Below, one piece after another: positions 8,708 to 30,429 of a stretch of 64,000 nucleotides of DNA. Origin of the DNA: a virus; IMG/VR virus record IMGVR_UViG_3300022902_000006. One strand, written 5' to 3'. Each line of letters starts with the position of its first letter. Positions within the stretch are counted from its first letter, which is position 1. The translations under genes and the position numbers were made by a program. The notes under the pieces were generated by a model that did not search any database, was not told the DNA's origin, and worked only from the letters and a program-made list of their open reading frames with translations.

Positions 8708-8888
8708 TGGTACCTTCTCCTCAAACTTCCGTGGTTAGTTCTCCCGACGAAAAAGAAATCGTATGTGTGTACAGGTTGATTATCATGCCCGCAGAATCCT
8801 CCCAGTCGGGAGAAGCATGGGTGACCCTGGGGCACATTCTTATACCAAGACTCGCGCTTTATTTAGACTTTCGTCTATACTACCCAGC

Positions 8889-11800
8889 ATGGCACTGACA
8901 CCCGTACTCATTGATGCAAACACCAAGCGCGCCCAGATCCATAAGCGCGCGATTGAAGGTGTGCAAAATGTCTTCCCGTTCGTAGCAGGGGACGAGCACA
9001 CCTTCGACGTCGAGAACCTCAATGTGGACGAGCGGACCTACTCCTCTCGTCAACAGAAGGACGCGATGATGCGTGGCCGCACACTGCAAGAACCTCTGCG
9101 CGGTGACATCGTAATTCGCAACAAAAAAGGCAAGGTCGTCGATCGACAAAAGAACGCGGTCCTCGCTCAGCTCCCATTCTTCACCCCCCGGCATACCTTC
9201 ATCGTGGATGGCAACGAGTACAGCGTACCCCACCAGAAGCGCATCCGCCCCGGCGTTTATACCCGTGTACGTGGCAACGATGAACTGGAGGCCGCATTCA
9301 ACCTGGGCAAAGGAGAGAACTTCCGCGTACACATGAACCCTGAAAAGGGGCACCTCTTCATGCAGTACGGCTCAACGAACATCCCCCTGTATCCGGTGTT
9401 GAAGCGCCTCGGCGTACCCACCAGCCAGTTACAGCGCGCCTGGGGCAAAGGTGTCGTTGACGTAAACCGTGATGCCTTCGCCGCAAAAGATGTAGCGGCA
9501 GTTGACAAACTGTACGCTCGTCTCACCCCTGAGCACAGACTCGCTGACGCCCAAACCACAGAGGAGCGTATTGCCTCCATCCGTGAAAGCTACGAACACA
9601 CCTCCCTGGAGCCAGAAGTTACGCAGCGCACCCTGGGAAAAGCGTATGACCGTGTGACCCCCAACGTTCTCGTGGACGCATCCAAGAAACTCCTTGACGT
9701 CCACCGCAAAGGCATCGACGTCGATGACCGCGACAACCTGGCGGTCCAAACACTACACGGGGTGGACGACTTTATCCGGGAGCGCATCGAACTGGAAGGG
9801 AGAAACCTCACTCGCAAGGTGCGCATGAAGGCCCGAGGATCAGCGGCACCCAGAGTGGCGGAAGTCGTGCCCCCCTCCCCCTTTACGCGGTCTGTCCGAA
9901 ACTTCGTAACCACGTCGTCCCTGGCCTCCATCGGCGCCCAGATTAACCCCATCGAAATGATTGACAGCGCCATGCGTGTCACCTCCCTCGGGGAAGGGGG
10001 TATCGGATCAGAGCGCGCAGTGCCCGATGAAGCCCGGCGCCTGCACCACACGCACTTCGGTGTACTCGACCCAGCACGCACCCCTGAATCCTTCCGAGCG
10101 GGCATTGACCTCCGTGCTGCGCTTTGGACAAGCAAAGACGAGAAGGGGCGCATCCATACCAAGATGCACGACGTACGTAAGGGTAAGCTCCGCGACGTCC
10201 CTGTTGACACCCTCGAAGGATCAACCATCGCATTTCATGGGGAAGGGAAGAAAAGGTACGGCGTCTCCGCCATGCGCAAAGGGGAACTAGTCTCTGTCCC
10301 TCGCAGCCAGGTGGACTACGCAGTCCCGCACGCCAACTTCCTCTACAGCCCGGCGACGACGTTGGTACCTTTCATCGAATCCTCACAAGGCAACCGCGTC
10401 CTCATGGGTGGCAAAATGGCGACCCAGGCACTGCCCCTGCTTGAGCGGGAGGAGCCTTACATCCAGGCAGAATCGTACAATCAAGGCCGCACCATGGAGC
10501 AGGAGATGGCCCAGCTCGTGGTGCCCACATCCCCCGTCAACGGGGAGGTGGCCAAGGTAGACCAAGACTACATCTACATCCGCCCTAACGGCACGAAGAC
10601 GGGCAGTTCCGAACTGGAACTCGCACCCATCGAGCACGCCTGGACTGCGAAGGAAGGATCCGAGTGTTGTGATGTTTGCTCCAGCTCCGCCACGACTCGG
10701 GTATTGTGGGCAGAGGGCCACGGATACATCCCCGCGTGTGAGAAACACAAGGAAGAGATTGCTGAGTCGAAGGGGGACGACTTCTCTGGCTTCAAACCCT
10801 TTCCCCACGACAAGCAAGCGTCTGGTGCGACGCTCGTCCGCGTACCTTACGACACCGACTACCCACTGTCTTCCAAGACGCGGCTACACAACACCGTGAC
10901 CGTCAAGAAGGGGGATAAGGTGCGGACCAACCAACACCTGGCGGAGTCCAACTTCACGCGCAATGGGCGCATGGCACTGGGCCGCAACATGAACGTAGGC
11001 TACCTCGCGTACTACGGACTGAACACCAACGACGCCGTGGTGGTCTCTGAAACCGCCGCACAGAAGCTCACCAGCGAACACATGTACAAAGAAGCGCTGG
11101 CCCTCGACACCGACATCACGCTGAACAAGAAAAAGCACCGGATGATCTACGGGACACGCTGGACCGCAGCGCAGTACGATAACCTGGACAACCAAGGCAT
11201 CGCAAAACCAGGTGCCACCGTACACCCGGGTGACCCCATCATCCTGGCCCTTCGCAAGGCCGCGCCCTCTCCCGAGCAACAGATGTTGGGGCGTCTCCAC
11301 AAGACACTGGCCACCCCCTTCCGCGAGCAAGCGGTAACCTGGGACCACAAGTCTCCAGGCACCATCGCCGAGGTGGTTGCAACCGGGACTCGCATCCTGG
11401 TCACGGTCAAGACCAACGAGCCCGCATCCATCGGTGATAAGCTCGCGGGGCGCTACGGTAATAAGGGTGTCATCTCCCACATCCTCCCCGATGACGTAAT
11501 GGTGCAGACCCCAGACGGGAAGCCTCTGGACATCCTGATGCCCCCAACAGGGGTCAACAGCCGCGTCAACCCTGCCCAAGTGTTGGAGACGGCGCTCGCC
11601 AAGGTGGCGCGCAAAACAGGGGAACCCATCGCTGTAGGTCCGTCCTCACAAAACAACGTCACGATGGTGCGCGCCGCACTCAAGAAGCACGGACTCACTG
11701 ACAAAGAGGTGCTGTTCAACCCCCGCACTGGGAAACATATCAAGGGGCCAGATGGCCGAGGTGTCATGGTTGGGCCGCAGTACACCTACAAGCTGGCCAA

Positions 11801-13472
11801 GTCTACCGACACCAACTACTCCGCTCGTGGCATAGATAGTTACGACGTAAATCAGCAGCCATCCAAGGGTGGATCCGACGGTGCCAAGGCTCTGGGGCGC
11901 ATGGAGATGAACGCCCTGTTGAGCCACAACGCTCGCAACGTGGTCAAGGAATCCGCCACTGTCAAGAGCAGCCACAACGACGAGTTCTGGCGCGCGTACC
12001 AGCTCGGACAACCCCTCCCTGCTCTCCAGGAGCCGTTCGTCGCAAAGAAGTTCACTGCTATGCTGCAGGGGGCAGGCATCCGTGTGGACAAGGGAGATGA
12101 ACAAGTAACTCTCGGGCCGCTGACCGACCCTGACATCACACGCCTCTCGTCGGGCCGCGTCGAAAAGCCCACCATGCTGCGCGAGCGTGACCTCGCACCC
12201 GAGAAGGGGGGCTTGTTTGACCCCGTCGTAACTGGGGGTTCTCAAGGGGAACGCTGGTCTCACATCAACCTATCCGAACCCATCGTCAACCCCTCCTTCG
12301 CTGACCCTGTACGTCGGATGTTGGGAATGACGGTCAAGCAGTATCGCGCCACGATTGGTACGGAGGGCGGGCGTGGCATCCAGTCCCGTCTCGCAGGTCT
12401 CAACATGCGCCAGCGAGAACAGGACCTCATCGCTACCACGCGCACTGCGACAGGAGCCAACCTCGACAACGCAGTGAAGCAGCTCAAGGCTGTGCGTGCC
12501 CTACGCAAAGAAGGGCTCACCCCCGACAAAGCCTACGTCTTGTCCAAGGTTCCCGTGGTGCCCCCGACCGTGCGCCCCATCCTCCCCTCACGCGGTGGGC
12601 GTGACATGCTCATCGCTGACGCCAACTACCTGTACCGCGACACCATGTTGGCGAACGACGCTCTCCGCGACGCCAAGAAGGTACTTCCTGATGAAGCCAT
12701 CGGTGACGCCCGCCGCCACCTACACGATGCGGTGGGTGCGACCTTCGGCCTCAACGACCCCGTGAGCCCATCCATCAAGGCCAGGGGCGCGAAGGGCTTC
12801 ATTACCACCATCGCCGGACAGGGGAGCCCGAAGCGAGGCTTCTTCCACTCTCGTGTCATGTACCGCCCCCAGGACTTGTCGGGACGCGGGACCGTTGCTC
12901 CAGACCTCACCCTCAACATGGATGAGATCGGTGTGCCAGAAGAGATGCTGTGGACCACCTACGGCCCCCACATCGTCAGACGCCTGGTACAGAATGGGTA
13001 CCCCGCGATGCAGGCCAAGGAGATGATCGAACAACGACACCCTTCTGCCAAGAACGCACTCGATGCAGAAATCAAGGAGCGCCCTGTCTTCGTGAACCGC
13101 GCACCCACGCTACACCGCCACGGCATGATCGGCGCGTACCCCATCCCCGTTCCAGGCAAAACCATCCGTGTGAACCCCTTCATGGAAAAGGGCATGAACA
13201 TGGACTACGACGGCGACACCCTCCAGCTCCATGTCCCGGTGCTGCATGAAGCAGTACAAGAAGTGAAGGGCATGACGCTGTCCAATCTCCTGTTCGGAGA
13301 CCGCACCAAGTCCGACCTGTTGATCTTCCCCCAGCACGAGGCTGTGCTCGGAATCCACATGGGCACGCAGCCGGGGAAGGGTCGCGCCAAGAAGTTCAAG
13401 AGCCCCGGCGAAGCCATCAAGGCGTTCAATAAGGGGGACCTGGACTTGATGGACTCGGTACTGATCGACTAG
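8889..13472 (+). CDS. rpoBC: multisubunit DNA-directed RNA polymerase: beta fused to N-terminal half of beta' (probable virion RNAP)
   Basis: beta motifs FIVDGNE, HFGVLDPARTPES, GNRVLMGGKM, GDKLAGRYGNKGV, GRMEMNAL; then beta' motifs GGLFDP, VPVVPPTVRP, LSGRGTV, NRAPTLHR and catalytic NMDYDGD. Start taken at MALTP (8889). Confidence 0.93.
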   Translation: MALTPVLIDANTKRAQIHKRAIEGVQNVFPFVAGDEHTFDVENLNVDERTYSSRQQKDAMMRGRTLQEPLRGDIVIRNKKGKVVDRQKNAVLAQLPFFTPRHTFIVDGNEYSVPHQKRIRPGVYTRVRGNDELEAAFNLGKGENFRVHMNPEKGHLFMQYGSTNIPLYPVLKRLGVPTSQLQRAWGKGVVDVNRDAFAAKDVAAVDKLYARLTPEHRLADAQTTEERIASIRESYEHTSLEPEVTQRTLGKAYDRVTPNVLVDASKKLLDVHRKGIDVDDRDNLAVQTLHGVDDFIRERIELEGRNLTRKVRMKARGSAAPRVAEVVPPSPFTRSVRNFVTTSSLASIGAQINPIEMIDSAMRVTSLGEGGIGSERAVPDEARRLHHTHFGVLDPARTPESFRAGIDLRAALWTSKDEKGRIHTKMHDVRKGKLRDVPVDTLEGSTIAFHGEGKKRYGVSAMRKGELVSVPRSQVDYAVPHANFLYSPATTLVPFIESSQGNRVLMGGKMATQALPLLEREEPYIQAESYNQGRTMEQEMAQLVVPTSPVNGEVAKVDQDYIYIRPNGTKTGSSELELAPIEHAWTAKEGSECCDVCSSSATTRVLWAEGHGYIPACEKHKEEIAESKGDDFSGFKPFPHDKQASGATLVRVPYDTDYPLSSKTRLHNTVTVKKGDKVRTNQHLAESNFTRNGRMALGRNMNVGYLAYYGLNTNDAVVVSETAAQKLTSEHMYKEALALDTDITLNKKKHRMIYGTRWTAAQYDNLDNQGIAKPGATVHPGDPIILALRKAAPSPEQQMLGRLHKTLATPFREQAVTWDHKSPGTIAEVVATGTRILVTVKTNEPASIGDKLAGRYGNKGVISHILPDDVMVQTPDGKPLDILMPPTGVNSRVNPAQVLETALAKVARKTGEPIAVGPSSQNNVTMVRAALKKHGLTDKEVLFNPRTGKHIKGPDGRGVMVGPQYTYKLAKSTDTNYSARGIDSYDVNQQPSKGGSDGAKALGRMEMNALLSHNARNVVKESATVKSSHNDEFWRAYQLGQPLPALQEPFVAKKFTAMLQGAGIRVDKGDEQVTLGPLTDPDITRLSSGRVEKPTMLRERDLAPEKGGLFDPVVTGGSQGERWSHINLSEPIVNPSFADPVRRMLGMTVKQYRATIGTEGGRGIQSRLAGLNMRQREQDLIATTRTATGANLDNAVKQLKAVRALRKEGLTPDKAYVLSKVPVVPPTVRPILPSRGGRDMLIADANYLYRDTMLANDALRDAKKVLPDEAIGDARRHLHDAVGATFGLNDPVSPSIKARGAKGFITTIAGQGSPKRGFFHSRVMYRPQDLSGRGTVAPDLTLNMDEIGVPEEMLWTTYGPHIVRRLVQNGYPAMQAKEMIEQRHPSAKNALDAEIKERPVFVNRAPTLHRHGMIGAYPIPVPGKTIRVNPFMEKGMNMDYDGDTLQLHVPVLHEAVQEVKGMTLSNLLFGDRTKSDLLIFPQHEAVLGIHMGTQPGKGRAKKFKSPGEAIKAFNKGDLDLMDSVLID

Positions 13473-13501: not shown

Positions 13502-14002
13502 GTGAAAACTGCACAAGCCCTTGGCGTACGCGCTGCACTAATGAAGCTCGGCGCAGACCTACCCACCAATCAACGCGAGAACGCGTACCAACACTCCGAC
13601 AACTTTCTGGGCATGTCCGGCGAGTTCCTGCCCAAGGTGACCGGGACCATCGGGGGCGCGAGCGCGGGCGCTGCGGTAGGGGCTGGCCTGGGTGGTGGTG
13701 CTGGGATACTCGCCAGCCTCCTCAGTCGTGGGCGAATTCCAGGTGCTGCCGCTGGCGCTGGTGCCTTGCTCGGCGGCGCAGCGGGAACGGGCCTGGGTGC
13801 CATGTCCGGGTACCAAACGGGCAAGAATGAGGGGCGTGCCAACCGTTACATGGCCGAACGCGGCCTACACCGAGAGCGTGGGTTGGAGCGGCACGACAGG
13901 CTCCACGAGCTGCGAAATAAACACCCCGCGTTCAACACGAAGTTTCGCCAGATTATGTTGGGTGGGTCCACCCCAGCACCCGCCTCCCCTCCTACACCGT
14001 AG
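13502..14002 (+). CDS. glycine-zipper head-associated protein
   Basis: KTA..LG..AL.KLG leader; GxxxG repeats (GGASAGAAVGAGLGGG...). Confidence 0.7.
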   Translation: MKTAQALGVRAALMKLGADLPTNQRENAYQHSDNFLGMSGEFLPKVTGTIGGASAGAAVGAGLGGGAGILASLLSRGRIPGAAAGAGALLGGAAGTGLGAMSGYQTGKNEGRANRYMAERGLHRERGLERHDRLHELRNKHPAFNTKFRQIMLGGSTPAPASPPTP

Positions 14003-14009
14003 AGCACGG

Positions 14010-14038
14010 TTGAATAAAAGAATTCGCAGACCTATACT
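14010..14038 (+). promoter_or_regulatory. sigma70-like promoter TTGAAT-N17-TATACT
   Basis: Exact 17-nt spacer, GACC before the -10 box, intergenic. Confidence 0.65.
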
Positions 14039-14066
14039 TGCTTCGTAAAGTTTCCCGGAGAAATGT

Positions 14067-14501
14067 ATGTCCCATATCGACACTGCGTATCATCTCGGCG
14101 CTCTTGCTGCCCAGGAAAAAATTGCGGAGGAAGAGAAGAAGGGCTTCACGCTAATTGAAGCGCTGATCCTCGCGGGGGGTATCGGAGTTCCCGCCGCATA
14201 CATGGGGAATCGGGCAGCAACCGCAGACCGCGAACCCGTTTCAATGGGGCGGCGCGCTCTGAGAGGAGCGGCCACGGGCACCGCTGGTGTACTCGGCGGA
14301 GCGTTCGGCGGGGGCATGGGTGCCTGGGCCGGGTCCCATCTCCCTGGACGCCTCCAAGCGCCCGGAGCCATGCTCGGTGGTCTCGCAGGTGCCATCGGCG
14401 GGGGCTACATAGGGGGACACACCGCTGGAGACCAGCTAACTCCTGGTGCTGCACCCAAACCACCAGCACCACCACAACCAACACCACCACAAGGAACCTA
14501 A
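14067..14501 (+). CDS. glycine-zipper protein with embedded type IV prepilin-like motif (KKG/FTLIE)
   Basis: Leader TAYHLGALAAQEKIA, then KKGFTLIEALILAGG, then GxxxG repeats. Confidence 0.7.
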   Translation: MSHIDTAYHLGALAAQEKIAEEEKKGFTLIEALILAGGIGVPAAYMGNRAATADREPVSMGRRALRGAATGTAGVLGGAFGGGMGAWAGSHLPGRLQAPGAMLGGLAGAIGGGYIGGHTAGDQLTPGAAPKPPAPPQPTPPQGT

Positions 14502-14504
14502 GCC

Positions 14505-14957
14505 ATGTCCCATCTTGATACCGCATACCGTCTCGGTGCCCTTGTGGCCCAAGAGAAGTTCGCAGCAGAAGAGCAAGCTGCACTCGAACAAGCACAAGGT
14601 ACCCCGCCCCAGGAAGATCCGAGCATGCTCGCCCAGATCTCTCAGCTCGCCCAGACCCCCGAAGGTATGGGCGGCGCGGCGGGCGGCGTGGGCGGCGCAG
14701 CAGCAGCGGGTAGCGCGGCGGGTCTCGGCCTGCGCGGCAGCAGCATGAGCCCCAAGGCGAAGGCTGCGCTGATCGTCGCCAGCGTTCTGGGTGGTGGAGC
14801 AGCAGGCGGTGTGGGAGGCGCAGCAGCAGGTAACGCCCTCGCCCCTCCGCCCCCAGCACCGCCCGCACCCCCGACACCCGCGCCTGAGCCAAGCGCCATC
14901 GAGAAGCTCAAGGGCATGTTCGGCGGCGGCACACCGGCAGCAGCACCACCCCAGTAG
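14505..14957 (+). CDS. glycine-zipper protein, leader paralogous to 14067..14501
   Basis: MSHLDTAYRLGALVAQEKFA vs MSHIDTAYHLGALAAQEKIA; Gly/Ala hairpin; Pro-rich tail. Confidence 0.7.
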   Translation: MSHLDTAYRLGALVAQEKFAAEEQAALEQAQGTPPQEDPSMLAQISQLAQTPEGMGGAAGGVGGAAAAGSAAGLGLRGSSMSPKAKAALIVASVLGGGAAGGVGGAAAGNALAPPPPAPPAPPTPAPEPSAIEKLKGMFGGGTPAAAPPQ

Positions 14958-14974: not shown

Positions 14975-16093
14975 ATGGCCAGATATGACGAGCACGTACA
15001 AGAGAAACTGCGTGAGGTCCTAGCGGCCTACGCCCCCGGTATCCCTGCTCGTCGCACCTCCGCACTCCCCACCATCACCCAGAACACCACCAACCGTTGG
15101 GTCATGGCCATCCAGAACCACAAGGCGCAACGCGCCGGTAAGCACCACGACCTGCGCCTCGTTGACCCCGACGCAGGCAAGGCGCACTCCTGGGCCATCC
15201 CCAAGTCACGCATGCCAGCCCCGGGAGAGCGCCTCCTCGCTGTACAAACCCACACGCACACACCGCAATATGCGTTGCACGGCAAAGGGGAAGGCGTAAC
15301 CCTTGCTCGCAAGGAGCCAGTGAGTGTACTGGAGTCGTCTCCCGATAAACTGCGCTTTCAGCTTGAGGATGACGCTGTGAGTGAGTTCCTTTTACGGCGT
15401 AAATCCAAGGACAAGTGGCTCCTCATGAACACGACGAAGACGAGCGCCGTGCTCGGCCAGACCCACGCACTTCGCAGCCTGGGGCTCCTAGAAAAGGACG
15501 CCGCCTGGGGCGCAGCAGCAATGAAGGGGCTGGGCGCTGCGTGGAACTGGGGCAGTAAGATGTTGGGACGCGTTGGAGGTGGAGGAGCATCCAAGAGCAC
15601 CGCACTCGTCCCCCGCACTCCCGGTATGCCCCCTATGCCAGGACCAGCAGGTCCAGGACTAGGACAGAGATTTATGTCCTGGGCAGGGGCCAGTCCCGTG
15701 AATGCCTACGCCGCACAGGGTGGTATGGGCGCAGGCATCGGTGGCGTTGCTGGTGCTGCGTCCGCAGACCCCGGTAACCGCATGGGTGGGTTCATGCGCG
15801 GAGCAGTAGGAGGTGCTGCGCTGGGCCTGGGAGGCGCGCACTTCGGAGGCAAGGCAGGACTAAACTACGCGGCGGGCAAGGGATTCAACCTGAACCAAAC
15901 GCAGGGTGCCGTCGGTGCCATGGGGCTCGGTGGGCTCAGCGCAGGTGGACTCGCCGGGGGCATCGCCGGGGGTGCAGGTTTCGGAGGTGCGCCGCCACCA
16001 CCCGCTCCACCCATGAACCCAACGAACCGTAGCCCGTGGGGTGGGCAACAAAACGCCGGTGGTATGAGTGGCACGTTTCCTGGCAAGCCCTGA
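14975..16093 (+). CDS. LigD-type 3'-phosphoesterase (PE) domain fused to glycine-zipper region
   Basis: AIQNH..R..HHDLRL..SWAIPK..GERLLAVQTHTH...Y matches the LigD PE signature; C-half is GxxxG-rich after LGLLEKDA. Confidence 0.8.
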   Translation: MARYDEHVQEKLREVLAAYAPGIPARRTSALPTITQNTTNRWVMAIQNHKAQRAGKHHDLRLVDPDAGKAHSWAIPKSRMPAPGERLLAVQTHTHTPQYALHGKGEGVTLARKEPVSVLESSPDKLRFQLEDDAVSEFLLRRKSKDKWLLMNTTKTSAVLGQTHALRSLGLLEKDAAWGAAAMKGLGAAWNWGSKMLGRVGGGGASKSTALVPRTPGMPPMPGPAGPGLGQRFMSWAGASPVNAYAAQGGMGAGIGGVAGAASADPGNRMGGFMRGAVGGAALGLGGAHFGGKAGLNYAAGKGFNLNQTQGAVGAMGLGGLSAGGLAGGIAGGAGFGGAPPPPAPPMNPTNRSPWGGQQNAGGMSGTFPGKP

Positions 16094-16099
16094 TGACAC

Positions 16100-16128
16100 T
16101 TGCACAAACAAAAACAGCCTTCTATCAT
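16100..16128 (+). promoter_or_regulatory. sigma70-like promoter TTGCAC-N17-TATCAT
   Basis: Intergenic, 17-nt spacer. Confidence 0.55.
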
Positions 16129-16178
16129 GCGGGTAGACAGTCTGCTCTGCATGCAATAGGGATTACAGGAGAACGACA

Positions 16179-16850
16179 ATGAGATATTACGCACTCCGCG
16201 CCGCAGCTTTCTGCATCTGGGTTGCTGTTACCGGACTCACCATCGGCGCACCCCTGGTTTCCATCGCGGCTGACGCTCAACCCACTGCTGCGGTAGGCGA
16301 CGCCGCAGTTCCCGCCGCCCCGGCTGTGCCTGTTGATGCTATGGTTACCGCCGCGCCCGTGGCTCCTGTGGCTCCCGTCCCCACCGTTGAGGCGCCCGCC
16401 GCCCCGAAAGAGCAAGCCTGGTGGCAAGCCGCTCTCCTCCCGATCCTCAGCGCTCTGGGCCTGGGCATCGCTGCGTTCATTGGTGCGGGTCTACGCAAGC
16501 TCACCCAGCTCATGGAAGCCAAGTGGAAGATCGACATCCCCGATCGGATGGTGGATATGCTTATCAAAGAGGCAAAACACCTTGCGGCCTGGGCTGAGGA
16601 GGTCGCTGAGGATCGCCTCCTGAATGGGGACGGCGTGAAGACCCCGGGCGCTGAGAAGTTCTCCGGTGTCGTGGATGGTCTGGAGACCTTCGCCAAGGCC
16701 CGGGGCTGGGACAAGGAATGGCGTCGTGCACAGCTTGAGAAGCTGGCCACGAGCGTCGTGCACCTGGAGCGCAGCGGTGATACCGGCGTGGGCACCACGA
16801 ACGGCGACCGGAAGAAGGCCCTGGACGCGGCCAAGAGCGCTGCCGCATAG
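16179..16850 (+). CDS. membrane protein, LL-H-type holin-like
   Basis: N-terminal hydrophobic helix, Pro/Ala linker, second TM (WWQAALLPILSALGLGIAAFIG), then A..AEE...GAEK...V pattern resembling LL-H holins. Confidence 0.45.
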   Translation: MRYYALRAAAFCIWVAVTGLTIGAPLVSIAADAQPTAAVGDAAVPAAPAVPVDAMVTAAPVAPVAPVPTVEAPAAPKEQAWWQAALLPILSALGLGIAAFIGAGLRKLTQLMEAKWKIDIPDRMVDMLIKEAKHLAAWAEEVAEDRLLNGDGVKTPGAEKFSGVVDGLETFAKARGWDKEWRRAQLEKLATSVVHLERSGDTGVGTTNGDRKKALDAAKSAAA

Positions 16851-17148: not shown

Positions 17149-18942
17149 TTGGCGCAGCAACGCACATCTGTCGGGCGTCTCCTGCTCAACGATGTCCTCC
17201 CTGAGCCTTATCAGCTACCCGAGGACGTTACGAAGAAGGTCCTCAATGCCACCATGGCTGACTTCGCGAGGACAGACCCCCAACGCTACGTCCAGGCCAT
17301 CGGGGACCTCAAAAGAATAGGGGACCAGGTTGCTACCGACATGGGGCTCACCGTAGGGCTGGATGATATCGAACCAGACTACGCCCGCCGTGACCGTGTT
17401 CTTGAGCCCGCTCTGCGCAGAGTCAAGGCACTGAGCGACCCTACTGCCAAGCGGCGCCTCATCATCAGTACCCAGGATAAGATGTTTGAAATGGCCCCCC
17501 AGCACCCTGGTCAGATGGCCATCGTTGCCACGAGTGGTGCACGGGGCAACGCGGGACAGCTCATGCGCACCGTCACATCCCCAACGGGAGTGACTGACGC
17601 ACAGGGTGCAGTGATCCCGTGGATGATTAGTAAGAGCTTCTCGGAGGGGTTGAAGCCTGCTGACACATGGATCGCCATGGCGGAAGCCAGGCGTAACGTG
17701 GTCGAATCCAACATCGCTGTCTCTGGCCCCGGTGAGATGAGCAAGATCCTGGTCAGTAATATGAGTGACCAGCTCGTCACGGTGCCTGACTGCGGAACAA
17801 CGAATGGGGTTTCATTCGCACATACCGACCCTCACATCGTTGGACGCTACGCTGCCAGCGGAGGGTTTCTGAGCGCCCACCACGTGTCTGGTTTACGGCG
17901 TAAAGAGCCCAAGGGGAGCATCATCGTACGATCCCCTATGACCTGTGAAGCGCCGAACGGCGTCTGCCAAAAGTGCTACGGACAAACGCCAACAGGTAAA
18001 GACCCCCAGATTGGGTACAACGTAGGAATGATCGCAGCCCAGGCTATGGGGGAGCCACTAACCCAGATGGCGCTGAGCGCAAAGCACGCAACGCGTACTG
18101 CCAAATCGCAACGTGCAGTCCTCCAGGGGTTGAGTGGCCTGAAGCAGCTCACCGAGATGCCACAGAGCTTTTTCAACCGCGCCACCTTGGCTCAAGAGCC
18201 GGGACGCGTAACCGCTGTCCGCGAAGCACCTCAAGGTGGACACTACGTCAACGTCAACGAACAAGAGCACTACGTACCCCCAAACCTGGACGTAACCGTC
18301 AAGCCTGGTCAGCGCATCGAACAAGGAGACGCGCTATCCGACGGCATCCCCAAACCCGATGAAGTGGTGCAGCACAAAGGTCTCGGAGCAGGGCGGCGCT
18401 ACATGGTGGACCAGCTCCACCAGATCTACACGCGTAATGGTCTCGACCTGGATAAGAGGCACCTGGAGCTGCTCGCCAAGACCGACCTGAACTACGTCAA
18501 GGTGTTGGACGCTGACAGCCCAGAACTGGGTGTAGCTCGCGGAGAAGTTGTGGATTACAACCGCTTCCGCGCAGCCGTCGCAAAGAAAGCGAAGAGGCGC
18601 CCCACCGCCCAAGCCCAGGGACAGTTCCTTGGAGACAACGTCCTGCATTACACCGCAGGCACCGAAGTTACCCCCAGTGTAATGGCAGACTTGGAGCGCA
18701 GTGGGGTGAAAAACGTACCCACACTCCCCCACGTACCCCAGCACGAACTCATCCTCAAGCCTATCAGCCGTACTCCCCTGTTACACTCGGACTGGTTGGC
18801 GCGGTTAGGCCACCGCAATTTGAAAGCATCCATCTTGGATGGCGCAACCTTTGGTGAATCATCTAATATACACGGCACGCATCCAGTCCCAGCGTTTGTC
18901 TTTGGCGAAACACTGGGGCGCGGGCCGCAAGGACGATACTAA
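17149..18942 (+). CDS. rpoC: RNA polymerase beta' C-terminal half
   Basis: SGARGNAGQL, SFSEGL..bridge helix..GEMSKIL, DCGT, RSPMTC..GVCQKCYG (Zn site), GMIAAQAMGEPLTQMAL (trigger loop); TTG start. Confidence 0.92.
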   Translation: MAQQRTSVGRLLLNDVLPEPYQLPEDVTKKVLNATMADFARTDPQRYVQAIGDLKRIGDQVATDMGLTVGLDDIEPDYARRDRVLEPALRRVKALSDPTAKRRLIISTQDKMFEMAPQHPGQMAIVATSGARGNAGQLMRTVTSPTGVTDAQGAVIPWMISKSFSEGLKPADTWIAMAEARRNVVESNIAVSGPGEMSKILVSNMSDQLVTVPDCGTTNGVSFAHTDPHIVGRYAASGGFLSAHHVSGLRRKEPKGSIIVRSPMTCEAPNGVCQKCYGQTPTGKDPQIGYNVGMIAAQAMGEPLTQMALSAKHATRTAKSQRAVLQGLSGLKQLTEMPQSFFNRATLAQEPGRVTAVREAPQGGHYVNVNEQEHYVPPNLDVTVKPGQRIEQGDALSDGIPKPDEVVQHKGLGAGRRYMVDQLHQIYTRNGLDLDKRHLELLAKTDLNYVKVLDADSPELGVARGEVVDYNRFRAAVAKKAKRRPTAQAQGQFLGDNVLHYTAGTEVTPSVMADLERSGVKNVPTLPHVPQHELILKPISRTPLLHSDWLARLGHRNLKASILDGATFGESSNIHGTHPVPAFVFGETLGRGPQGRY

Positions 18943-19046: not shown

Positions 19047-20453
19047 ATGCAAGCATCGCTCTTCAAACGTTCCAGTGTACGAGGCATCAACGATGCCCTC
19101 ATCAACGCCGGGCTACAGTACCCATCCAAGACCGCAGCCGACGAGGTAGCGGACGCGGTGGCTGATGAGATGATGGTGACCGAGCCCGCGATGGAAGGGG
19201 CCGAGGGAGAAATCCCCGCTGAGGAAGCCGCTGAAATCGCCACCAAGCTGGTGGAAGTGGCCAACGAGCTGATGGCCAGCACGCAGCCCGCACCCGACGC
19301 ACCCGAGGAAGAGCGCATCGCCGCCTACCACGGCGTCATGGGGAGCAAGACCGCCGCAGCCCGGGACGTCAACACCCGCGCCGGGGAGCAATCCTACGCC
19401 TGCATGCAGAAGGCAGCGGAGGAAGCCGACACCAACGTGTCCGGCGCAGGCGGCACCGGGTCCACCATCGGTGTGGGCGCGGCAGCGCCCGAGAACACCC
19501 TGCCCAACGCCACCTTCGCAGAGACGCAGATGGAAGCGTCCCAGCGTCCCCCAGGCACCCACGAGGTTGGGGTGGGCAACACCGAGCAAGCACACGCTGG
19601 TGTCGTGGGTTCGGAGGATGTCGGCGCAGACACCCCGGCACCGCACACCACCGCTGGTGGCGCAGGAACCAACTCGGTGATTGAGCACTCGGAGAAGAAC
19701 AGCACCCTCCGTCAGATCATCCAGAAGGTGGCCGCAGGGTCGAACATCGAGGGCGGCGACAAGCCCGAGAACACCCTGCCCAACGCCCCCGCCGCCGAGA
19801 CCCAGATGGAGAACTCCCAGCGCCCGCCAGGGTACGCTGCACTCCCGCAGCTCGGTGGTACCGTCACCGACATCGGCACCTCCCCCGCCGCAACCGTGGG
19901 CACCGAGCAGCCCGTCGACGCCGGTCCCCAGAACACCCCAGCAGGCGCGGTCCCCGGAAGTGCGGGCAACTCCGTGGTCGAGCACTCGGAGACCTCGATG
20001 CCAGGCAAGACTGCAGGCGTCGACCCCGCGTACCTCCATCTCTTCCAGAAGACCGCCAACCACGTGGTCGACTTCCTGCCCAGCCAGTACACCGAGAACG
20101 ACAAGGTGGCGCAGGTCCGCTACATGATGGGCCTGAATGACGGCGAACGCTCCGCGCACATCTCCTCCCTGCACAAGCACGCCGGGACCATGGACGCACA
20201 GAGCATCGTCGACATGTACAGCATCTACGCCGACAAGGTGGCCGAGGAAGAGGCCGCTGCTGCCGGTGCACCACCCCCGGCCCCGAAAGCGGAGAAGGGC
20301 GACTGGATGGACCGCATGTCCAAGACCACGGACGGCGCGTACGACTGGGCCAACGCCAAGGCCCACGACGTCAAGACGTGGGTGCAAAAGAAACTCAAGA
20401 AGGACCCGAAGCCCGCAAAGCCCGCAGCACCGGCGGCAGCACCGGCGAAGTAG
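19047..20453 (+). CDS. putative head-core protein with internal duplication
   Basis: Strong GC3 bias; many KxA motifs; PENTLPNA..AETQME.SQRPPG..NSV.EHSE twice. Confidence 0.7.
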   Translation: MQASLFKRSSVRGINDALINAGLQYPSKTAADEVADAVADEMMVTEPAMEGAEGEIPAEEAAEIATKLVEVANELMASTQPAPDAPEEERIAAYHGVMGSKTAAARDVNTRAGEQSYACMQKAAEEADTNVSGAGGTGSTIGVGAAAPENTLPNATFAETQMEASQRPPGTHEVGVGNTEQAHAGVVGSEDVGADTPAPHTTAGGAGTNSVIEHSEKNSTLRQIIQKVAAGSNIEGGDKPENTLPNAPAAETQMENSQRPPGYAALPQLGGTVTDIGTSPAATVGTEQPVDAGPQNTPAGAVPGSAGNSVVEHSETSMPGKTAGVDPAYLHLFQKTANHVVDFLPSQYTENDKVAQVRYMMGLNDGERSAHISSLHKHAGTMDAQSIVDMYSIYADKVAEEEAAAAGAPPPAPKAEKGDWMDRMSKTTDGAYDWANAKAHDVKTWVQKKLKKDPKPAKPAAPAAAPAK

Positions 20454-24704: not shown

Positions 24705-25526
24705 ATGCTGATGGACGAAGTAAGACTGGAGAAATACGCCGCTGAAGTAATCCAGGGCTACAAGTCCGCGAACGTGCCGTTGACGGACGGCGTCGTCAAG
24801 GTAGCGGAGGCGCGCTCGCTGAACGAGGAACAGGTACGTCGCCTGGTCGAGCGCGTGAACAACGATGTCTTTCAGCACCACTTCAAACAAGCAGAGGAAG
24901 CGAAAAGCGAAGACCGGAACGTGACCTTCGAACCCGCGAACCCCGACAGCGTACTCACCCGGCTCATCAACTCCGCCAAGGACGCCATCAACCCCACTCC
25001 CGAAGACTCGGCGGCGTCTGACCCTATGGACCTCATTGGAGACCTCCCCAATGGTTCTGACGCAGCGGGCCTGGGTGAACCAGAAAAGACTGCCTCCGCG
25101 CCAGAAGAGGAGCCCCTCCCATCCAAAGCAATCGTCATCACGCGACTGCGGAAAGCAGCCGGGGAGATGCGCATCGCTGAGACACAGGCCCGGTCCACCC
25201 TCACCGACGCCATGCAGAAGCTCGCGCGCCACTTCACCTTCCTGGACAACAAAGAGAAGTTTGCTGGCTTCGAGCGTGATGCGGTTTACCACCGTGGCAA
25301 CGACGCCGCGCCGTACCTCGCCCTCACTCGCCGTGCTCTGCGTATGCCCCGCATGACCTACGACGCCACCGCACTCCACAAGGTGGCACGTGTGGTCGAC
25401 ACCAACACCACTGAGATGCGGCTGTTGGATGCCTTCATCGCGGCTGACCAAGAAGTGGCGCGGCTGCACGCAGGCGTGGAGAAGATGGCAGCATACGAGA
25501 AGCAAGCAGGGACGCTGACCAGGTGA
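24705..25526 (+). CDS. putative head-core protein, KxA-rich
   Basis: 12 of 15 lysines are in K-x-A. Confidence 0.7.
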   Translation: MLMDEVRLEKYAAEVIQGYKSANVPLTDGVVKVAEARSLNEEQVRRLVERVNNDVFQHHFKQAEEAKSEDRNVTFEPANPDSVLTRLINSAKDAINPTPEDSAASDPMDLIGDLPNGSDAAGLGEPEKTASAPEEEPLPSKAIVITRLRKAAGEMRIAETQARSTLTDAMQKLARHFTFLDNKEKFAGFERDAVYHRGNDAAPYLALTRRALRMPRMTYDATALHKVARVVDTNTTEMRLLDAFIAADQEVARLHAGVEKMAAYEKQAGTLTR

Positions 25527-27123: not shown

Positions 27124-27774
27124 ATGACCCCCGAAGAAGCGTACCACCAGTTAATGGCAAAACTCTCCGCGTGCTCTGCACAGGAGAAGACTGCCTCCGT
27201 GACCCCCACGGATGCCGCCCTGCTCCAGAAAACTGCAGCGGATGTGGACGCGTTCGAGACTTTCATGAAAATCGCCTTGTCCTGGCGCGGTGTGAAGGAT
27301 GTTGCCCGTATCGCAGTACCAACTGCGATAGGTGCAGGTGGGGTCGCAACGGGTGGTGTTTACCTGGCGGGCCAGAACCTCATCAACAACGCAGACGCCA
27401 AAGCAAAGGCGCGCATTGAGGAGATGCGTGCGAAAGCATCCAAGGTTGCACTTGGTGCAACTGTAGCGGGGGCCACGCTGCTCGGCCTGCACCACTACCT
27501 CTCCAAGGACCGAGAACGGGCGCTGCTCCCTGGACGCCGCCCTGCACCACGCCGCCGCCCTGCACCACGCCGCCTCGCACCGATGATGCCCACTTACAGG
27601 GGCTACGCATCGAAGTTCGGCTCCGCATTCAACCCAGCAGAAGCCGAGACCCTCGAAAAGATAGGGACGGTTGTGTACCTGGAAGTGATGCTGCAAAAAA
27701 CAGCACACAGTGATACACTGCGTCTACTCAACGCAGAACACGGATCATCACTACTCCAAGAGCTACTGCCGTGA
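27124..27774 (+). CDS. putative internal head protein with two Gly-rich hydrophobic segments
   Basis: EKTA, QKTA twice, KIA; AIGAGGVATGG and ALGATVAGATLLG. Confidence 0.65.
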   Translation: MTPEEAYHQLMAKLSACSAQEKTASVTPTDAALLQKTAADVDAFETFMKIALSWRGVKDVARIAVPTAIGAGGVATGGVYLAGQNLINNADAKAKARIEEMRAKASKVALGATVAGATLLGLHHYLSKDRERALLPGRRPAPRRRPAPRRLAPMMPTYRGYASKFGSAFNPAEAETLEKIGTVVYLEVMLQKTAHSDTLRLLNAEHGSSLLQELLP

Positions 27775-29735
27775 CCCACGACCCCACTGACCGCCTCAAG
27801 ATAATCAACCTGGGTGAACGTTTTGAACACACAGGTGAGCCCACTGTACAGCCAGTGGTGCTCTGGGGTTTACGCGGTAAACCATGCTTCGAAAAAGTGT
27901 CCGCAGAGCTTCAGGGGAGCCCCGCCCTGGAGTACGCACGCAGCATCGAACCCGTACCCGGGAAAACGATATCCCTGATCATCGGGCTGGGTAGTTTTGA
28001 ATTTTACGGCCTGAACCGCAACGGTGATGGGTTCAACGAACAACCCTACCGCGTCGGGCAGCAGCCAACCTGCGGGTGCTGTACTGATAAGACGCGCACC
28101 GCGTGGATTGAGGAAGCTGAGTGCACCACCCACCACTACCAGAGCTACGAAAACGGTGCGGTGTTTCGCCACCACGTCAATAAGGACCGGAAGAAGGCTG
28201 TTGGGCACATCCTCAAAGCGTTCTGGAATCCCATCATGCACCGTGTCGAGGTCATCGAAGACCTGAACAACGCCAAGGCTCCCGACCTCGCAACACGGAT
28301 AGGGGACGGGGAATTCCCTGCCAAGAGCATGGGGTGCCGCATCAAGTTCGATGTCTGCACCAAGTGTGGCCATCGCGCCCCAACCAGGAAACAATACTGC
28401 GACCACCTCAAGTGGGAAATGGGACACCTGGACCAAGCGACAGGTATTCGCTACGGCGCCCTCAACCCTGCCCCCAACTTCTTCGACAGTTCCTGGGTTT
28501 TCCGCCCCGCTGACCGCACAGGTTGGATGCTCAAAAAAGTCGCAGAACACGCGTACGAACTACAGGGCTCCAGTATCCTGGGCGAGCGTGTCGAAGACCT
28601 GAATCACAAAGCTGCGGCTGCGCAGAAGCTGGCCGTCATCGACAAAATCGTACAGGGGTACCCCGCCGCTGCATTCCCCGATGACGCCGACGCACCCCTC
28701 ATCGAGCGCTTCTGCCAGACAACGCTACCCACCATGGTAGAGAACACCGAAGAACTAACCACGGAAGATATGTCGCAGTTGAACCCAACTGACGACATCG
28801 CTGACGTACTCGCGTCTTTGGCTGAAGAAGGCATCACCCTCACTACCCCTGAATTCATTCGTCTGTTCGTATCACGCATGGCACCAGGTGTTGAAGTTCC
28901 TCCCGCCATCATGCCATACGCAGTTATCCTACAGTCGGAGTTGTTCGACCTTCTACGGCAACACCCCTCTCTGGTTGAAGAGGTGGTTACTCCTCTGACC
29001 AAGGAAAAACCACAACGCATCAAAATCCCAGAACCCATTCTGGAGAAGCGCTCATTCATCGGTGAATATCTACAACGCCGCCTGGCACCCACCATGCTGC
29101 AAGGCAACGCCGCTCCTACCACCGACCTCCTGCACGTACTCCCTTCACAGGGTCAAGACGGCTTCAAAACCACGCGAGGCGCTGCACAAGGAACACAGGA
29201 TGCCATCGCAGAAGCGAAGCTCAAGCAGGGTGTAGTCGCGGGCCTCCTGAGCAGCGTTGGCCTGGGCGTAGCTGGTCTCGTAGCCAAGAAAGCCCCTGGT
29301 GCACAAAAGTGGCTCGCTCTGGCCCCACTCGCAGGTGGGCTGGGCCTCGGGGGATACTACGGGGCAGAGGCCCTGCGCCCTGTGAAAATGAGGCGCACTA
29401 CAGAAGGTGGTCTGATCCCCGCACGAACCCCCATGAAAGAGTATCCACGCGCCGATGTTGAAGAGAGCGCACTCATGGAAGCAACGAAACGAAGTGGTTT
29501 GAGCCACCGCGTAAAGTCTGGGTCTGTCATTGCGCACTTGCGCAAGTACAGCGCAGCACAGCACCCCATGGCGCTGTTTGTTACAAAGCACGCCAGTCAC
29601 GGCGCCCAGTGCTCACACCTGTCTCTCGCAGCCATCGCACACGCACTCGAAAAGCGCGCATCTGCGGGCATATTTGAAGAGCCAATTGACCTAGACAAAG
29701 TAGCCGATTTGGTCGGATGCCTCATATGGGCGTAA
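27771..29735 (+). CDS. prohead (maturation) protease, HK97/assemblin-like fold, with KxA-rich C-terminal extension
   Basis: NRNGDGF, FRHHVNKD (His), SMGC (Ser nucleophile) followed by CTKCG..CDH, NPAPNFFDSSWVFRPAD; located upstream of scaffold/capsid genes. Confidence 0.75.
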   Translation: MTHDPTDRLKIINLGERFEHTGEPTVQPVVLWGLRGKPCFEKVSAELQGSPALEYARSIEPVPGKTISLIIGLGSFEFYGLNRNGDGFNEQPYRVGQQPTCGCCTDKTRTAWIEEAECTTHHYQSYENGAVFRHHVNKDRKKAVGHILKAFWNPIMHRVEVIEDLNNAKAPDLATRIGDGEFPAKSMGCRIKFDVCTKCGHRAPTRKQYCDHLKWEMGHLDQATGIRYGALNPAPNFFDSSWVFRPADRTGWMLKKVAEHAYELQGSSILGERVEDLNHKAAAAQKLAVIDKIVQGYPAAAFPDDADAPLIERFCQTTLPTMVENTEELTTEDMSQLNPTDDIADVLASLAEEGITLTTPEFIRLFVSRMAPGVEVPPAIMPYAVILQSELFDLLRQHPSLVEEVVTPLTKEKPQRIKIPEPILEKRSFIGEYLQRRLAPTMLQGNAAPTTDLLHVLPSQGQDGFKTTRGAAQGTQDAIAEAKLKQGVVAGLLSSVGLGVAGLVAKKAPGAQKWLALAPLAGGLGLGGYYGAEALRPVKMRRTTEGGLIPARTPMKEYPRADVEESALMEATKRSGLSHRVKSGSVIAHLRKYSAAQHPMALFVTKHASHGAQCSHLSLAAIAHALEKRASAGIFEEPIDLDKVADLVGCLIWA

Positions 29736-29741
29736 TCTGAC

Positions 29742-29770
29742 TTGTTTTTAGAAAACCTTCGACCTATGAT
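29742..29770 (+). promoter_or_regulatory. sigma70-like promoter TTGTTT-N17-TATGAT
   Basis: GACC before the -10 box, as at 14033 and 18982. Confidence 0.55.
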
Positions 29771-29808
29771 TGAGAAGAAATTCGCCGACACCCAGTGAGG
29801 CCAACGAC

Positions 29809-30429
29809 ATGGAACTCAAAGACATCCTGAACCGCCTGGACAAGACCACGCAAGCCAACGAAGGTGGCGTGAAAACTGCCGGTGCCCAGCCCACCACCCC
29901 CATCGCTCCCGACGCATTGCGCGATGCGGTGCGCAACGCCTCCGGTGACGGTGAGACCAAAGTGGCCTCTGCACCAGAAGAGGACACCAGCGCACAGCTC
30001 CTCAAGATGGCGTCCGACCTGGCCAGCGCAGAAGACCAAGCGCTCACCAAGCGGGCCTCCGTGCTCGGCGCCGCCATGTGTGATGGCTTCATGACCCGCT
30101 TCGCCTCCTACGAGGAGGCCGCAGGCGCCGTCGCCCCGCAGGCGGAAAAGGTCGCCGCCGCGCAGGAGTACCACGGCGACATCACCGTGGACATGATCAA
30201 GCAGGCCGCAGCGAGCCCGGACTTCACCAAGTTCGCGGAGGACAACCCGCAGCTCGTGAAGGAAGCCTTTGACCTGGGCTACCAGCAGACCCTGGGTGCG
30301 ATGGAGAAGCAAGCCGCCGCCGAGTACGAGCAGGGCTACAACGAGACCATGGCCACCGTGCACAAGATCGCCGCCGAGTGCTACATCCAGGGTGAGACCA
30401 AGATCGCCCAGATTCTGGCCGCAGGTTAG
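29809..30429 (+). CDS. putative scaffold/core protein, KxA-rich
   Basis: 11 of 13 lysines in K-x-A; repeated [FY]xxG..[TA].. helix before KxA; strong GC3 bias. Confidence 0.7.
   Translation: MELKDILNRLDKTTQANEGGVKTAGAQPTTPIAPDALRDAVRNASGDGETKVASAPEEDTSAQLLKMASDLASAEDQALTKRASVLGAAMCDGFMTRFASYEEAAGAVAPQAEKVAAAQEYHGDITVDMIKQAAASPDFTKFAEDNPQLVKEAFDLGYQQTLGAMEKQAAAEYEQGYNETMATVHKIAAECYIQGETKIAQILAAG

Follow-up and report, generated by a model that had tools for sequence, protein, structure and literature searches.

The phage gene g14067 encodes a small protein in which a leader common to otherwise unrelated phage proteins ends at a type IV pilin-type site, K-K-G/FTLIE; this site recurs in three lineages and is probably a working pilin-like signal. 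The source genome, an IMG/VR virus record of an uncultured marine phage, comprises 180,179 bases with 58% G+C and is rated complete by CheckV; the window is the whole stretch of 64,000 nucleotides of this DNA that was analysed, and positions without a prefix refer to it. To our knowledge, G/FTLIE is read only by the host prepilin peptidase, of the PilD/GspO type, and by the assembly platform of type IV filaments, which makes a mechanism involving the host peptidase the most likely one. We tentatively favour the reading that the g14067 product is directly processed by the host prepilin peptidase and has a function in the pilin pool, a possibility that we place somewhat short of an even chance. 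The gene and the modules of its product are the following.

14067 to 14501, plus strand: g14067, a modular small protein of 144 residues with a 99% identical twin (P0001) and diverged homologues (P0002, P0005 and P0003/L001).
14067 to 14144, plus strand: leader, residues 1-26, net charge -2, with a helix predicted at residues 3-17 in a low-confidence model.
14118 to 14126, plus strand: K18-I-A20; the E-K-[IF]-A form is present in the four closest leaders only.
14136 to 14144, plus strand: K24-K-G26, both a [KR]-x-G class III leader end and a K-x-[A/G/S] leader-end motif.
14145 to 14207, plus strand: pilin-type start F27-G47, i.e. FTLIE (14145 to 14159; E31 is Glu+5) and the uncharged residues that follow.
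14265 to 14429, plus strand: Gly/Ala-rich glycine-zipper region, approximately residues 67-121, where conservation with P0005 and L001 is highest.
14439 to 14498, plus strand: proline-rich tail, in which the twin P0001 has one more five-residue repeat.

The letters and coordinates of EKIA-EEE-KKG/FTLIE are as originally predicted; the interval assigned to the signal (14118 to 14180) spans K18 to G38, but the hydrophobic stretch runs approximately 27 bases beyond it. Prepilin leaders are hydrophilic, approximately 6-26 residues long and end in Gly, and this Gly-1 has been described as "absolutely critical" (PMC4471445). The g14067 leader, with its 26 residues and its terminal Gly (K24-K25-G26), is within this range of lengths; yet it has a net charge of -2 and contains a conserved helix. 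The same definition places Glu+5 in a tract of approximately 21 mainly hydrophobic residues. In g14067, Gly-1 is in place, as is Glu+5 in a stretch of approximately 21 residues that are uncharged apart from Glu+5, FTLIE being followed by 16 more uncharged residues in a run that reaches N48. The PilFind rule describes a protein of at most 350 residues with [GAS]-x4-[DE] no more than 35 residues from the N terminus, at least 14 uncharged residues next and one transmembrane segment close by (PMC3244431). In our re-implementation, in which Kyte-Doolittle hydropathy was substituted for TMHMM, g14067 agrees with this rule (144 residues, motif at residue 26, 17 uncharged residues next), and residues 26-45 are the only segment of the protein with a Kyte-Doolittle value of at least 1.6.

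The class III signal that had been predicted is thus borne out in its layout (Gly-1, Glu+5 and 17 uncharged residues, within 35 residues of the N terminus of a protein of less than 350 residues) but not by the curated profiles. Pfam N_methyl (PF07963) gives the window copy 14-15 bits at residues 24-34, a match that covers only profile positions 4-14 and is below the cut-off of 21.2, and TIGR02532 (cut-off 16.3 bits) reported no match to it; on its own, the window copy is a good motif match, yet outside the family by HMM. Similarly, the segment after FTLIE, expected to be a hydrophobic helix, is uncharged to N48 but its 19-residue Kyte-Doolittle maximum is only 1.67, compared to 2.93 in the genuine pilin L013, to which g14067 is 42% identical over residues 22-88 only, a match driven by the N terminus. 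Prepilin peptidase faces the cytoplasm and requires a leader-in orientation; with three Lys in the leader and five Arg in the 20 residues past the helix, the positive-inside rule does not favour this orientation. Moreover, past the helix the protein is rich in Gly, Ala and Pro, it has no pilin head (alpha-1 helix on a beta-meander), and no pilin domain was found in Pfam or NCBIfam. In total, g14067 resembles the class III signal described by PF07963 and TIGR02532 in the K-K-Gly leader end, Phe+1, Glu+5 and its small size. It differs from prepilins, which have featureless, basic leaders, in that its leader is acidic, helical and common to non-pilin paralogues, and it differs from pilins in its Gly-rich and marginally hydrophobic helix, the missing alpha-beta head and the lack of pilus genes nearby.

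For the Gly/Ala-rich part, an all-helical AlphaFold2 model of low confidence (five-row alignment; pLDDT 50, pTM 0.25), too poor for a usable fold, predicts two helices. The Gly-zipper HMMs of Pfam gave no match for g14067 at E up to 1. Leads from the ESM Atlas were weak (at most 0.87), with a feature match scoring 0.81 to one cluster, 53% of whose members carry Gly-zipper_YMGG.

g14067 is part of a cluster of small genes bounded by two RNA polymerase genes.

8889 to 13472, plus strand: first RNA polymerase gene, encoding beta and the N-terminal half of beta' as a fusion, one boundary of the small-gene cluster.
13502 to 14002, plus strand: g13502, a glycine-zipper protein with a related leader of the K-T-A-x-x-L-G type; in P0005, a single protein combines its orthologue with that of g14067.
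14505 to 14957, plus strand: g14505, a paralogue of g14067 with the same leader and without the pilin-type motif.
17149 to 18942, plus strand: second RNA polymerase gene, C-terminal half of beta', the other boundary of the cluster.

As predicted, the motif is specific to g14067 among the leader-bearing paralogues, g14505 having the leader alone. Except for a LigD phosphoesterase domain in the product of g14975, the neighbouring small proteins have no match in PHROGs, Pfam or NCBIfam.

An exhaustive HMMER search of g14067 against 1.8 billion representatives returned four matches, the first of which is the twin P0001. The second, P0002 (300 residues, ENA metagenome), has the same leader followed by K-Q-G/FTLIE; it is approximately 74% identical to g14067 over the first 34 residues, while only three of the next 16 are identical. 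P0002 exceeds both curated cut-offs, with 24.3 bits against 16.3 for TIGR02532 over all 24 positions and 23.2 bits against 21.2 for Pfam N_methyl, and its helix has the pilin positions Gly14, Ala17-Ala18 and Pro22. Synteny around P0002 and P0005 was taken from the gene tables of the ENA contigs. P0005 is encoded on the same contig as P0002 and next to it; it is the best orthologue of the g14067 body (45% identity over 125 residues), and it also contains a fused g13502 orthologue (78%). Its motif has decayed to K-Q-S/FTLGE, with Ser at -1 and Gly at +4. At locus L001 (P0003), an orthologue of g14505 comes after another orthologue of the g14067 body. The latter reads K-Q-G/LVDLG at an internal position and has no Glu+5, i.e. 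the motif is lost. Given these in-frame protein homologues, g14067 is a real gene. The order of the modules varies: in the window, two separate genes (13502 to 14501, with 13502 first) encode the g13502-type and g14067-type bodies, the order in the P0005 fusion is 14067-13502, and in L001:1-729 it is possibly 13502-14067, as judged by eye with weak BLAST support.

A pattern scan of IMG/VR yielded a third lineage with the motif, L116/L118 (records G007 and G006, the latter of 130,894 bases). The RNA polymerase of G006 is 30% identical to that of the window phage, and the capsid protein approximately 28%. In L118 the motif is found in a frame of 428 residues adjoining the capsid gene, in which a weakly nucleotidyltransferase-like N-terminal part is followed by a K-T-A-type tag, E-L-E-K-K-G/FTLIE-L and a glycine zipper. 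The Gly at -1 is residue 262, and Pfam N_methyl gives 14.2 bits, under the cut-off of 21.2. Because this motif is internal, it would be readable only after an upstream cleavage or from an internal start; an internal ATG with GAGGAG-N10 5' of it would yield an 18-residue leader.

An alignment of the four sequences with the motif, anchored at the cleavage point, shows agreement in E-x-E-K-[KQ]-[GS]/F-T-L-[IG]-E-[LA], and the residues past this block are nearly free to vary. The exact block E-x-E-K-[KQ]-G-FTLIE is present in three lineages, represented by the window, P0002 and L118. These comparisons argue that E-x-E-K-[KQ]-G-FTLIE-[LA] is a selected, sequence-specific site. By contrast, in L002, L006 and L007, which are closer syntenic relatives with 57-63% identity in the polymerase, the leader heads small proline-rich proteins that lack a pilin-type motif. 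Nor was there an N_methyl match in five related viral records, of which two are nearly complete. Recurrence in three lineages together with losses elsewhere indicates an old motif that is under selection in some lineages and has disappeared from others. A lack of conservation in homologues had been set beforehand as refuting the original prediction. Such a lack is not observed, the block being kept in the three lineages; it is decayed in two orthologues and absent from the closer syntenic relatives.

A word-index homologue search with g14067 returned only the 99% twin, and with g13502 only its own copy; a related-loci search with g13502 gave no match. The g14067 family alignment had no match among IMG/VR loci and, among metagenomes, matched only the genuine bacterial pilin L013; tblastn of g14067 against 50,697 deposited phages gave no match. 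Contigs of four seawater runs are identical to the window, with no population variants at the motif codons, and are thus uninformative on selection. Every run with the stretch bears the label seawater or marine metagenome; most date from 2018, and they may stem from one campaign or be the source itself.

The degenerate pattern G[FMILVY][TS][LIV][ILVMP]E matches once in the six frames of the 180,179-base genome, at the g14067 site, and the amino-acid composition of the phage predicts 0.0017 occurrences of the exact six-mer GFTLIE per proteome. It could be argued that the resemblance is due to chance and without meaning, given that any of many famous motifs could have matched and that the window copy is below the curated thresholds. 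With this expectation, the recurrence of the motif in P0002 and L118 and the scores of P0002 above both cut-offs, conservation brings the chance reading close to refuted, and we consider it extremely improbable.

A further alternative is that the segment is a plain membrane or oligomerisation helix, i.e. only the first hydrophobic helix of a glycine-zipper protein, which arose by capture of the 5' end of a host pilin gene or by convergence and has no present link to pili. This would agree with the decay of the motif where the body is best conserved (Ser-1 and Gly+4 in P0005, no Glu+5 in L001), with its absence from syntenic relatives, and with the sub-threshold HMM scores, weak helix and missing pilin head of the window copy. 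Codon usage can be cited in the same direction: GC3 of g14067 is 0.55, compared to 0.71 for the genes of the window, and Leu29 and Ile30 have rare codons, CTA (8% of Leu codons) and ATT (12% of Ile codons), which together are a weak hint of foreign origin. A plain helix would not need the exact six-mer, yet three lineages retain these six residues and E-x-E-K, with almost no constraint on the next 16 residues. We judge this alternative unlikely.

We favour processing by the host, which would proceed as follows. The full-length g14067 product, with its own 26-residue leader and no prior trimming, would insert in the host inner membrane in the leader-in orientation, be cut after Gly26 by the host prepilin peptidase, and be methylated. 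The pilin-like helix bearing Glu5, tied to the glycine-zipper body, would then join the pilin pool of a type IV pilus or of a type II secretion machine and would disturb or exploit it, e.g. by affecting pili such that superinfecting phages are excluded, as published phage pilin mimics do. Neither Peptidase_A24 nor a T2SSE ATPase is encoded in the complete phage record, which would make the phage dependent on host enzymes; the lack of own pilus biogenesis genes is as expected for a phage mimic that uses those of the host. Support for host processing comes from the uniqueness of the site in the genome, its low expected number and a block kept in three lineages with diverged flanks, from P0002, which is over both HMM cut-offs, and from the fit to the PilFind rule and leader layout; published phage pilus subunits and canonical prepilins on viral contigs (below) add to it. 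It is weakened by the copies in the window and in L118 that are below the cut-offs, by the weak helix, the acidic shared leader and the unfavourable charges, by Ser-1 in P0005, the loss in L001, the absence from five viral records and the internal site in L118, and by the missing pilin head.

Pilin-like phage genes are already known. P-FimU, encoded by F10-like Pseudomonas phages, is incorporated into the Pseudomonas pilus and blocks phages that bind the tip (Sztanko et al. 2026, PMC12952977); P-PilA is found in Xylella prophages, and 60-residue N-terminal PilA stubs in virulent Pseudomonas phages (PMC12952977). Like these, g14067 is a phage gene with a pilin N terminus that is not accompanied by pilus biogenesis genes, and, like the stubs, which occur in virulent phages, it lacks a pilin head. 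However, P-FimU, P-PilA and the stubs have recognisable homology to host pilins over their full length, whereas g14067 is pilin-like over 11 residues and P0002 over 23; moreover, unlike the published mimics, g14067 has a glycine-zipper body and is located in a virion-polymerase gene cluster. What is new in g14067 is that a minimal graft follows a leader shared among phage proteins, that the body is a glycine zipper and that the gene belongs to a polymerase cluster. Only in 2026 was it demonstrated that complete pilus subunits encoded by phages become part of the pilus and exclude competing phages (PMC12952977). The g14067 family would reduce such mimicry to a minimal graft of a dozen pilin residues, a phage-specific leader and a glycine-zipper body, and, if the host peptidase cuts the site, would show how little of a pilin suffices to enter the pilin pathway.

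K[KQ]GFTLIE itself is not confined to this family among viral records: the pattern scan of IMG/VR matched approximately 85 contigs (L124-L220), some of which may be host DNA on viral contigs. Nearly all of these encode canonical prepilins with a leader of one to five residues and a strongly hydrophobic helix, and only L116/L118 have the glycine-zipper architecture. The matches include a repeated type of 319-335 residues, the body of which presumably resembles planctomycete DUF1559-type proteins, and many proteins of 50-190 residues.

The position of Gly26 is also that of a second, phage-encoded candidate cleavage site. Leaders of the type M-S-H-[LI]-D-T-A-Y-x-L-G-A head 14 proteins of seven loci from several phages, with otherwise unrelated bodies; the first 24 residues of the g14505 leader, for instance, are approximately 79% identical to the leader of the relatives. 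K-x-[A/G/S] is found at positions 24-28, where the conserved leader meets the variable body, in 10 of the 14, which are mutually related so that the counts are not independent. The copy of this leader-end motif in g14067 is K24-K-G26 itself. Since Gly26 is the leader-end residue of the family, a protease of the phage's own could make the same N terminus as a prepilin cut. A head-protease domain is encoded at 27771 to 29735, and two head-region proteins are strongly enriched in K-x-A compared to shuffles: K-x-A takes 12 of 15 lysines in the product of gene 24705-25526 (z 7.3) and 11 of 13 in that of gene 29770-30429 (z 6.6). We regard this enrichment as a candidate maturation-protease code.

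These observations bear on the alternative that g14067 is virion cargo matured by the phage protease. The leader would be a capsid-targeting tag, the head protease would cut at K-x-[A/G/S], here after Gly26, and the ejected protein would start at Phe27, its FTLIE helix and glycine zippers entering the inner membrane during delivery of DNA and polymerase; prepilin peptidase would not be involved, and the likeness to a mature pilin would have been reached without it. A precedent exists in the internal proteins of phage T4, which have a capsid-targeting sequence of approximately 10 residues that is removed by the prohead protease gp21 at the motif [LI]-x-E. The leader of g14067 is similar in that it is a short N-terminal peptide on otherwise unrelated proteins that is followed by a motif over-represented in head proteins, and different in its length of 26 residues, in the motif K-x-[A/G/S] and in that packaging and cleavage are putative. 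Maturation as cargo would account for one leader on unrelated bodies in several phages, for the leader-end motif in 10 of 14 proteins with G26 exactly there, for the K-x-A enrichment near the head-protease gene and for Ser at -1 in P0005; leader-like tags that, in g14975 and L118, separate an enzyme domain from a glycine-rich part, and a marginal hydrophobicity that suits a protein kept soluble until ejection are consistent with it. On the other hand, cleavage at the leader end is putative in all of these phages, the motif enriched in this phage is K-x-A and hardly ever K-x-G, and a letter-for-letter FTLIE across phages with 30% identity is left unexplained.

The location of g14067 between the polymerase genes is of further relevance to the cargo alternative. 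The two polymerase genes of the window are 32% identical to their homologues in Salmonella phage Arash. In virion preparations of Arash these two homologues rank first (that of the first polymerase gene) and fifth in abundance, on a list of 116 proteins that may include contaminants (PMC10585845). By analogy, the small-gene cluster probably travels inside the virion with the RNA polymerase; none of the genes between the Arash polymerase genes is homologous to g14067. Ejection (pilot) proteins delivered with a virion RNA polymerase are described for phage N4 (PMC13434306) and for podoviruses generally (PMC8954989). To the ejection proteins described there, g14067 is similar as a small gene adjoining virion-polymerase genes whose product has hydrophobic segments that could enter the host envelope, a putative function; it has no sequence or fold relation to them, and its relative Arash is of the myovirus type with a contractile tail. 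Altogether, we consider maturation as cargo rather unlikely.

The original prediction combined the two proteases in sequence: the head protease would cut at K18-I-A20 and leave a six-residue leader, prepilin peptidase would then cut after Gly26, and the product would be a pilin mimic that jams or joins pili. K-x-A enrichment is real, the four closest leaders retain E-K-[IF]-A, and the segment is internal in L118 and L001, where an upstream cut or an internal start would be needed. Within g14067, K-x-A alone is not above chance (one seen, 0.7 expected), and K18-x-A20 is not kept in the more distant leaders, in which E-D-F-Q takes its place; cleavage at this K-x-A is putative. Nor is the motif cryptic behind K-x-A as had been proposed: a leader of 26 residues lies within the range of 6-26 residues (PMC4471445) and the 35-residue limit of PilFind (PMC3244431), which makes the first cut superfluous in g14067, while the motif at residue 262 of the 428-residue L118 frame, readable only after an upstream cut or from an internal start, does favour the original idea. 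Capsid-internal trimming is hard to combine in time and topology with host cleavage at the cytoplasmic face: a protein trimmed in the capsid would meet the peptidase only after ejection and from the wrong side of the membrane. We consider the two-step model very unlikely.

The pilin-like N terminus could also be produced by the phage itself, with no part for the host peptidase. If the head protease cut between Gly26 and Phe27, the virion would carry a phage-made 'mature pilin' starting with F-T-L-I-E, which would be ejected into the inner-membrane pilin pool or assembly platform, and the machine would be used as a gate for DNA and the packaged RNA polymerase or shut behind the phage. We regard this scenario as quite improbable; cleavage by a phage protease would allow a ready-made pilin-like N terminus to be delivered from outside. 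The leader and K-x-A also provide a handle on the putative maturation code of a poorly known clade, i.e. phages of 130-180 kb with virion polymerases.

The start of g14067 is preceded by two signals.

14057 to 14060, plus strand: ribosome-binding site GGAG, 6 bases 5' of the g14067 ATG, read directly.
14010 to 14038, plus strand: promoter-like TTGAAT-17-TATACT within the 64-base gap 5' of g14067, a consensus match only.

The sequence CCTATACTTG is common to this promoter-like site and to a second site 5' of gene 19047. CTATACT occurs three times in the 180-kb genome on either strand, at 8875, 14032 and 18981 of the window, all on the plus strand and each just upstream of a gene start (the first polymerase gene, g14067 and gene 19047, respectively); the two sites with CCTATACTTG have it behind a TTGNNN -35-like hexamer at a spacing of 17 bases. 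These three sites are candidate promoters that would divide the region into three transcription units. In the product of gene 19047 (19047 to 20453), K-x-A takes 11 of 25 lysines (z = 3.6 compared to shuffles).

Several observations concern the remainder of the cluster. Gene g14975 (14975 to 16093) encodes a LigD-type 3'-phosphoesterase domain followed by an internal leader-like tag and a glycine-rich tail, whereas its counterpart in L002 (L002:6512-8632, 706 residues) runs on into an ATP-dependent DNA ligase domain instead. A mini-ORF of 29 codons (16093 to 16182, plus strand), which shares one base with the stop of g14975 and four bases with the start of g16179, consists of a leader-like tag only; the matching tag in L002 is the C-terminal tail of a SET-domain protein (L002:8632-9054; Pfam SET, E 7e-10). 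The window seems to have kept the tag after loss of the SET enzyme.

The polymerase genes themselves differ among these phages. In the distant phage G006 (L123, G006:C1:58318-64512) the whole polymerase, beta and all of beta', is a single open frame of approximately 2,064 residues, compared to two genes 3.7 kb apart in the window; a head-region protein of 417 residues in G006 shows a milder K-x-A enrichment (11 of 33 lysines). A search of the beta' protein against genome contigs returned cellular rpoC genes at approximately 25% identity only, with no phage relatives and no hint of a host. The first polymerase gene of L002 contains an in-frame insert of approximately 340 residues with a LAGLIDADG domain (E 5e-7; L002:2675-3705), which falls inside a conserved beta motif (G-D-K-L ... 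G-N-K-G-V); the insert is an intein in a phage RNA polymerase. Finally, the codons for G-F-T-L-I-E-A in g14067 form a perfect 6-bp inverted repeat, GCTTCA-N7-TGAAGC, at 14143 to 14161.
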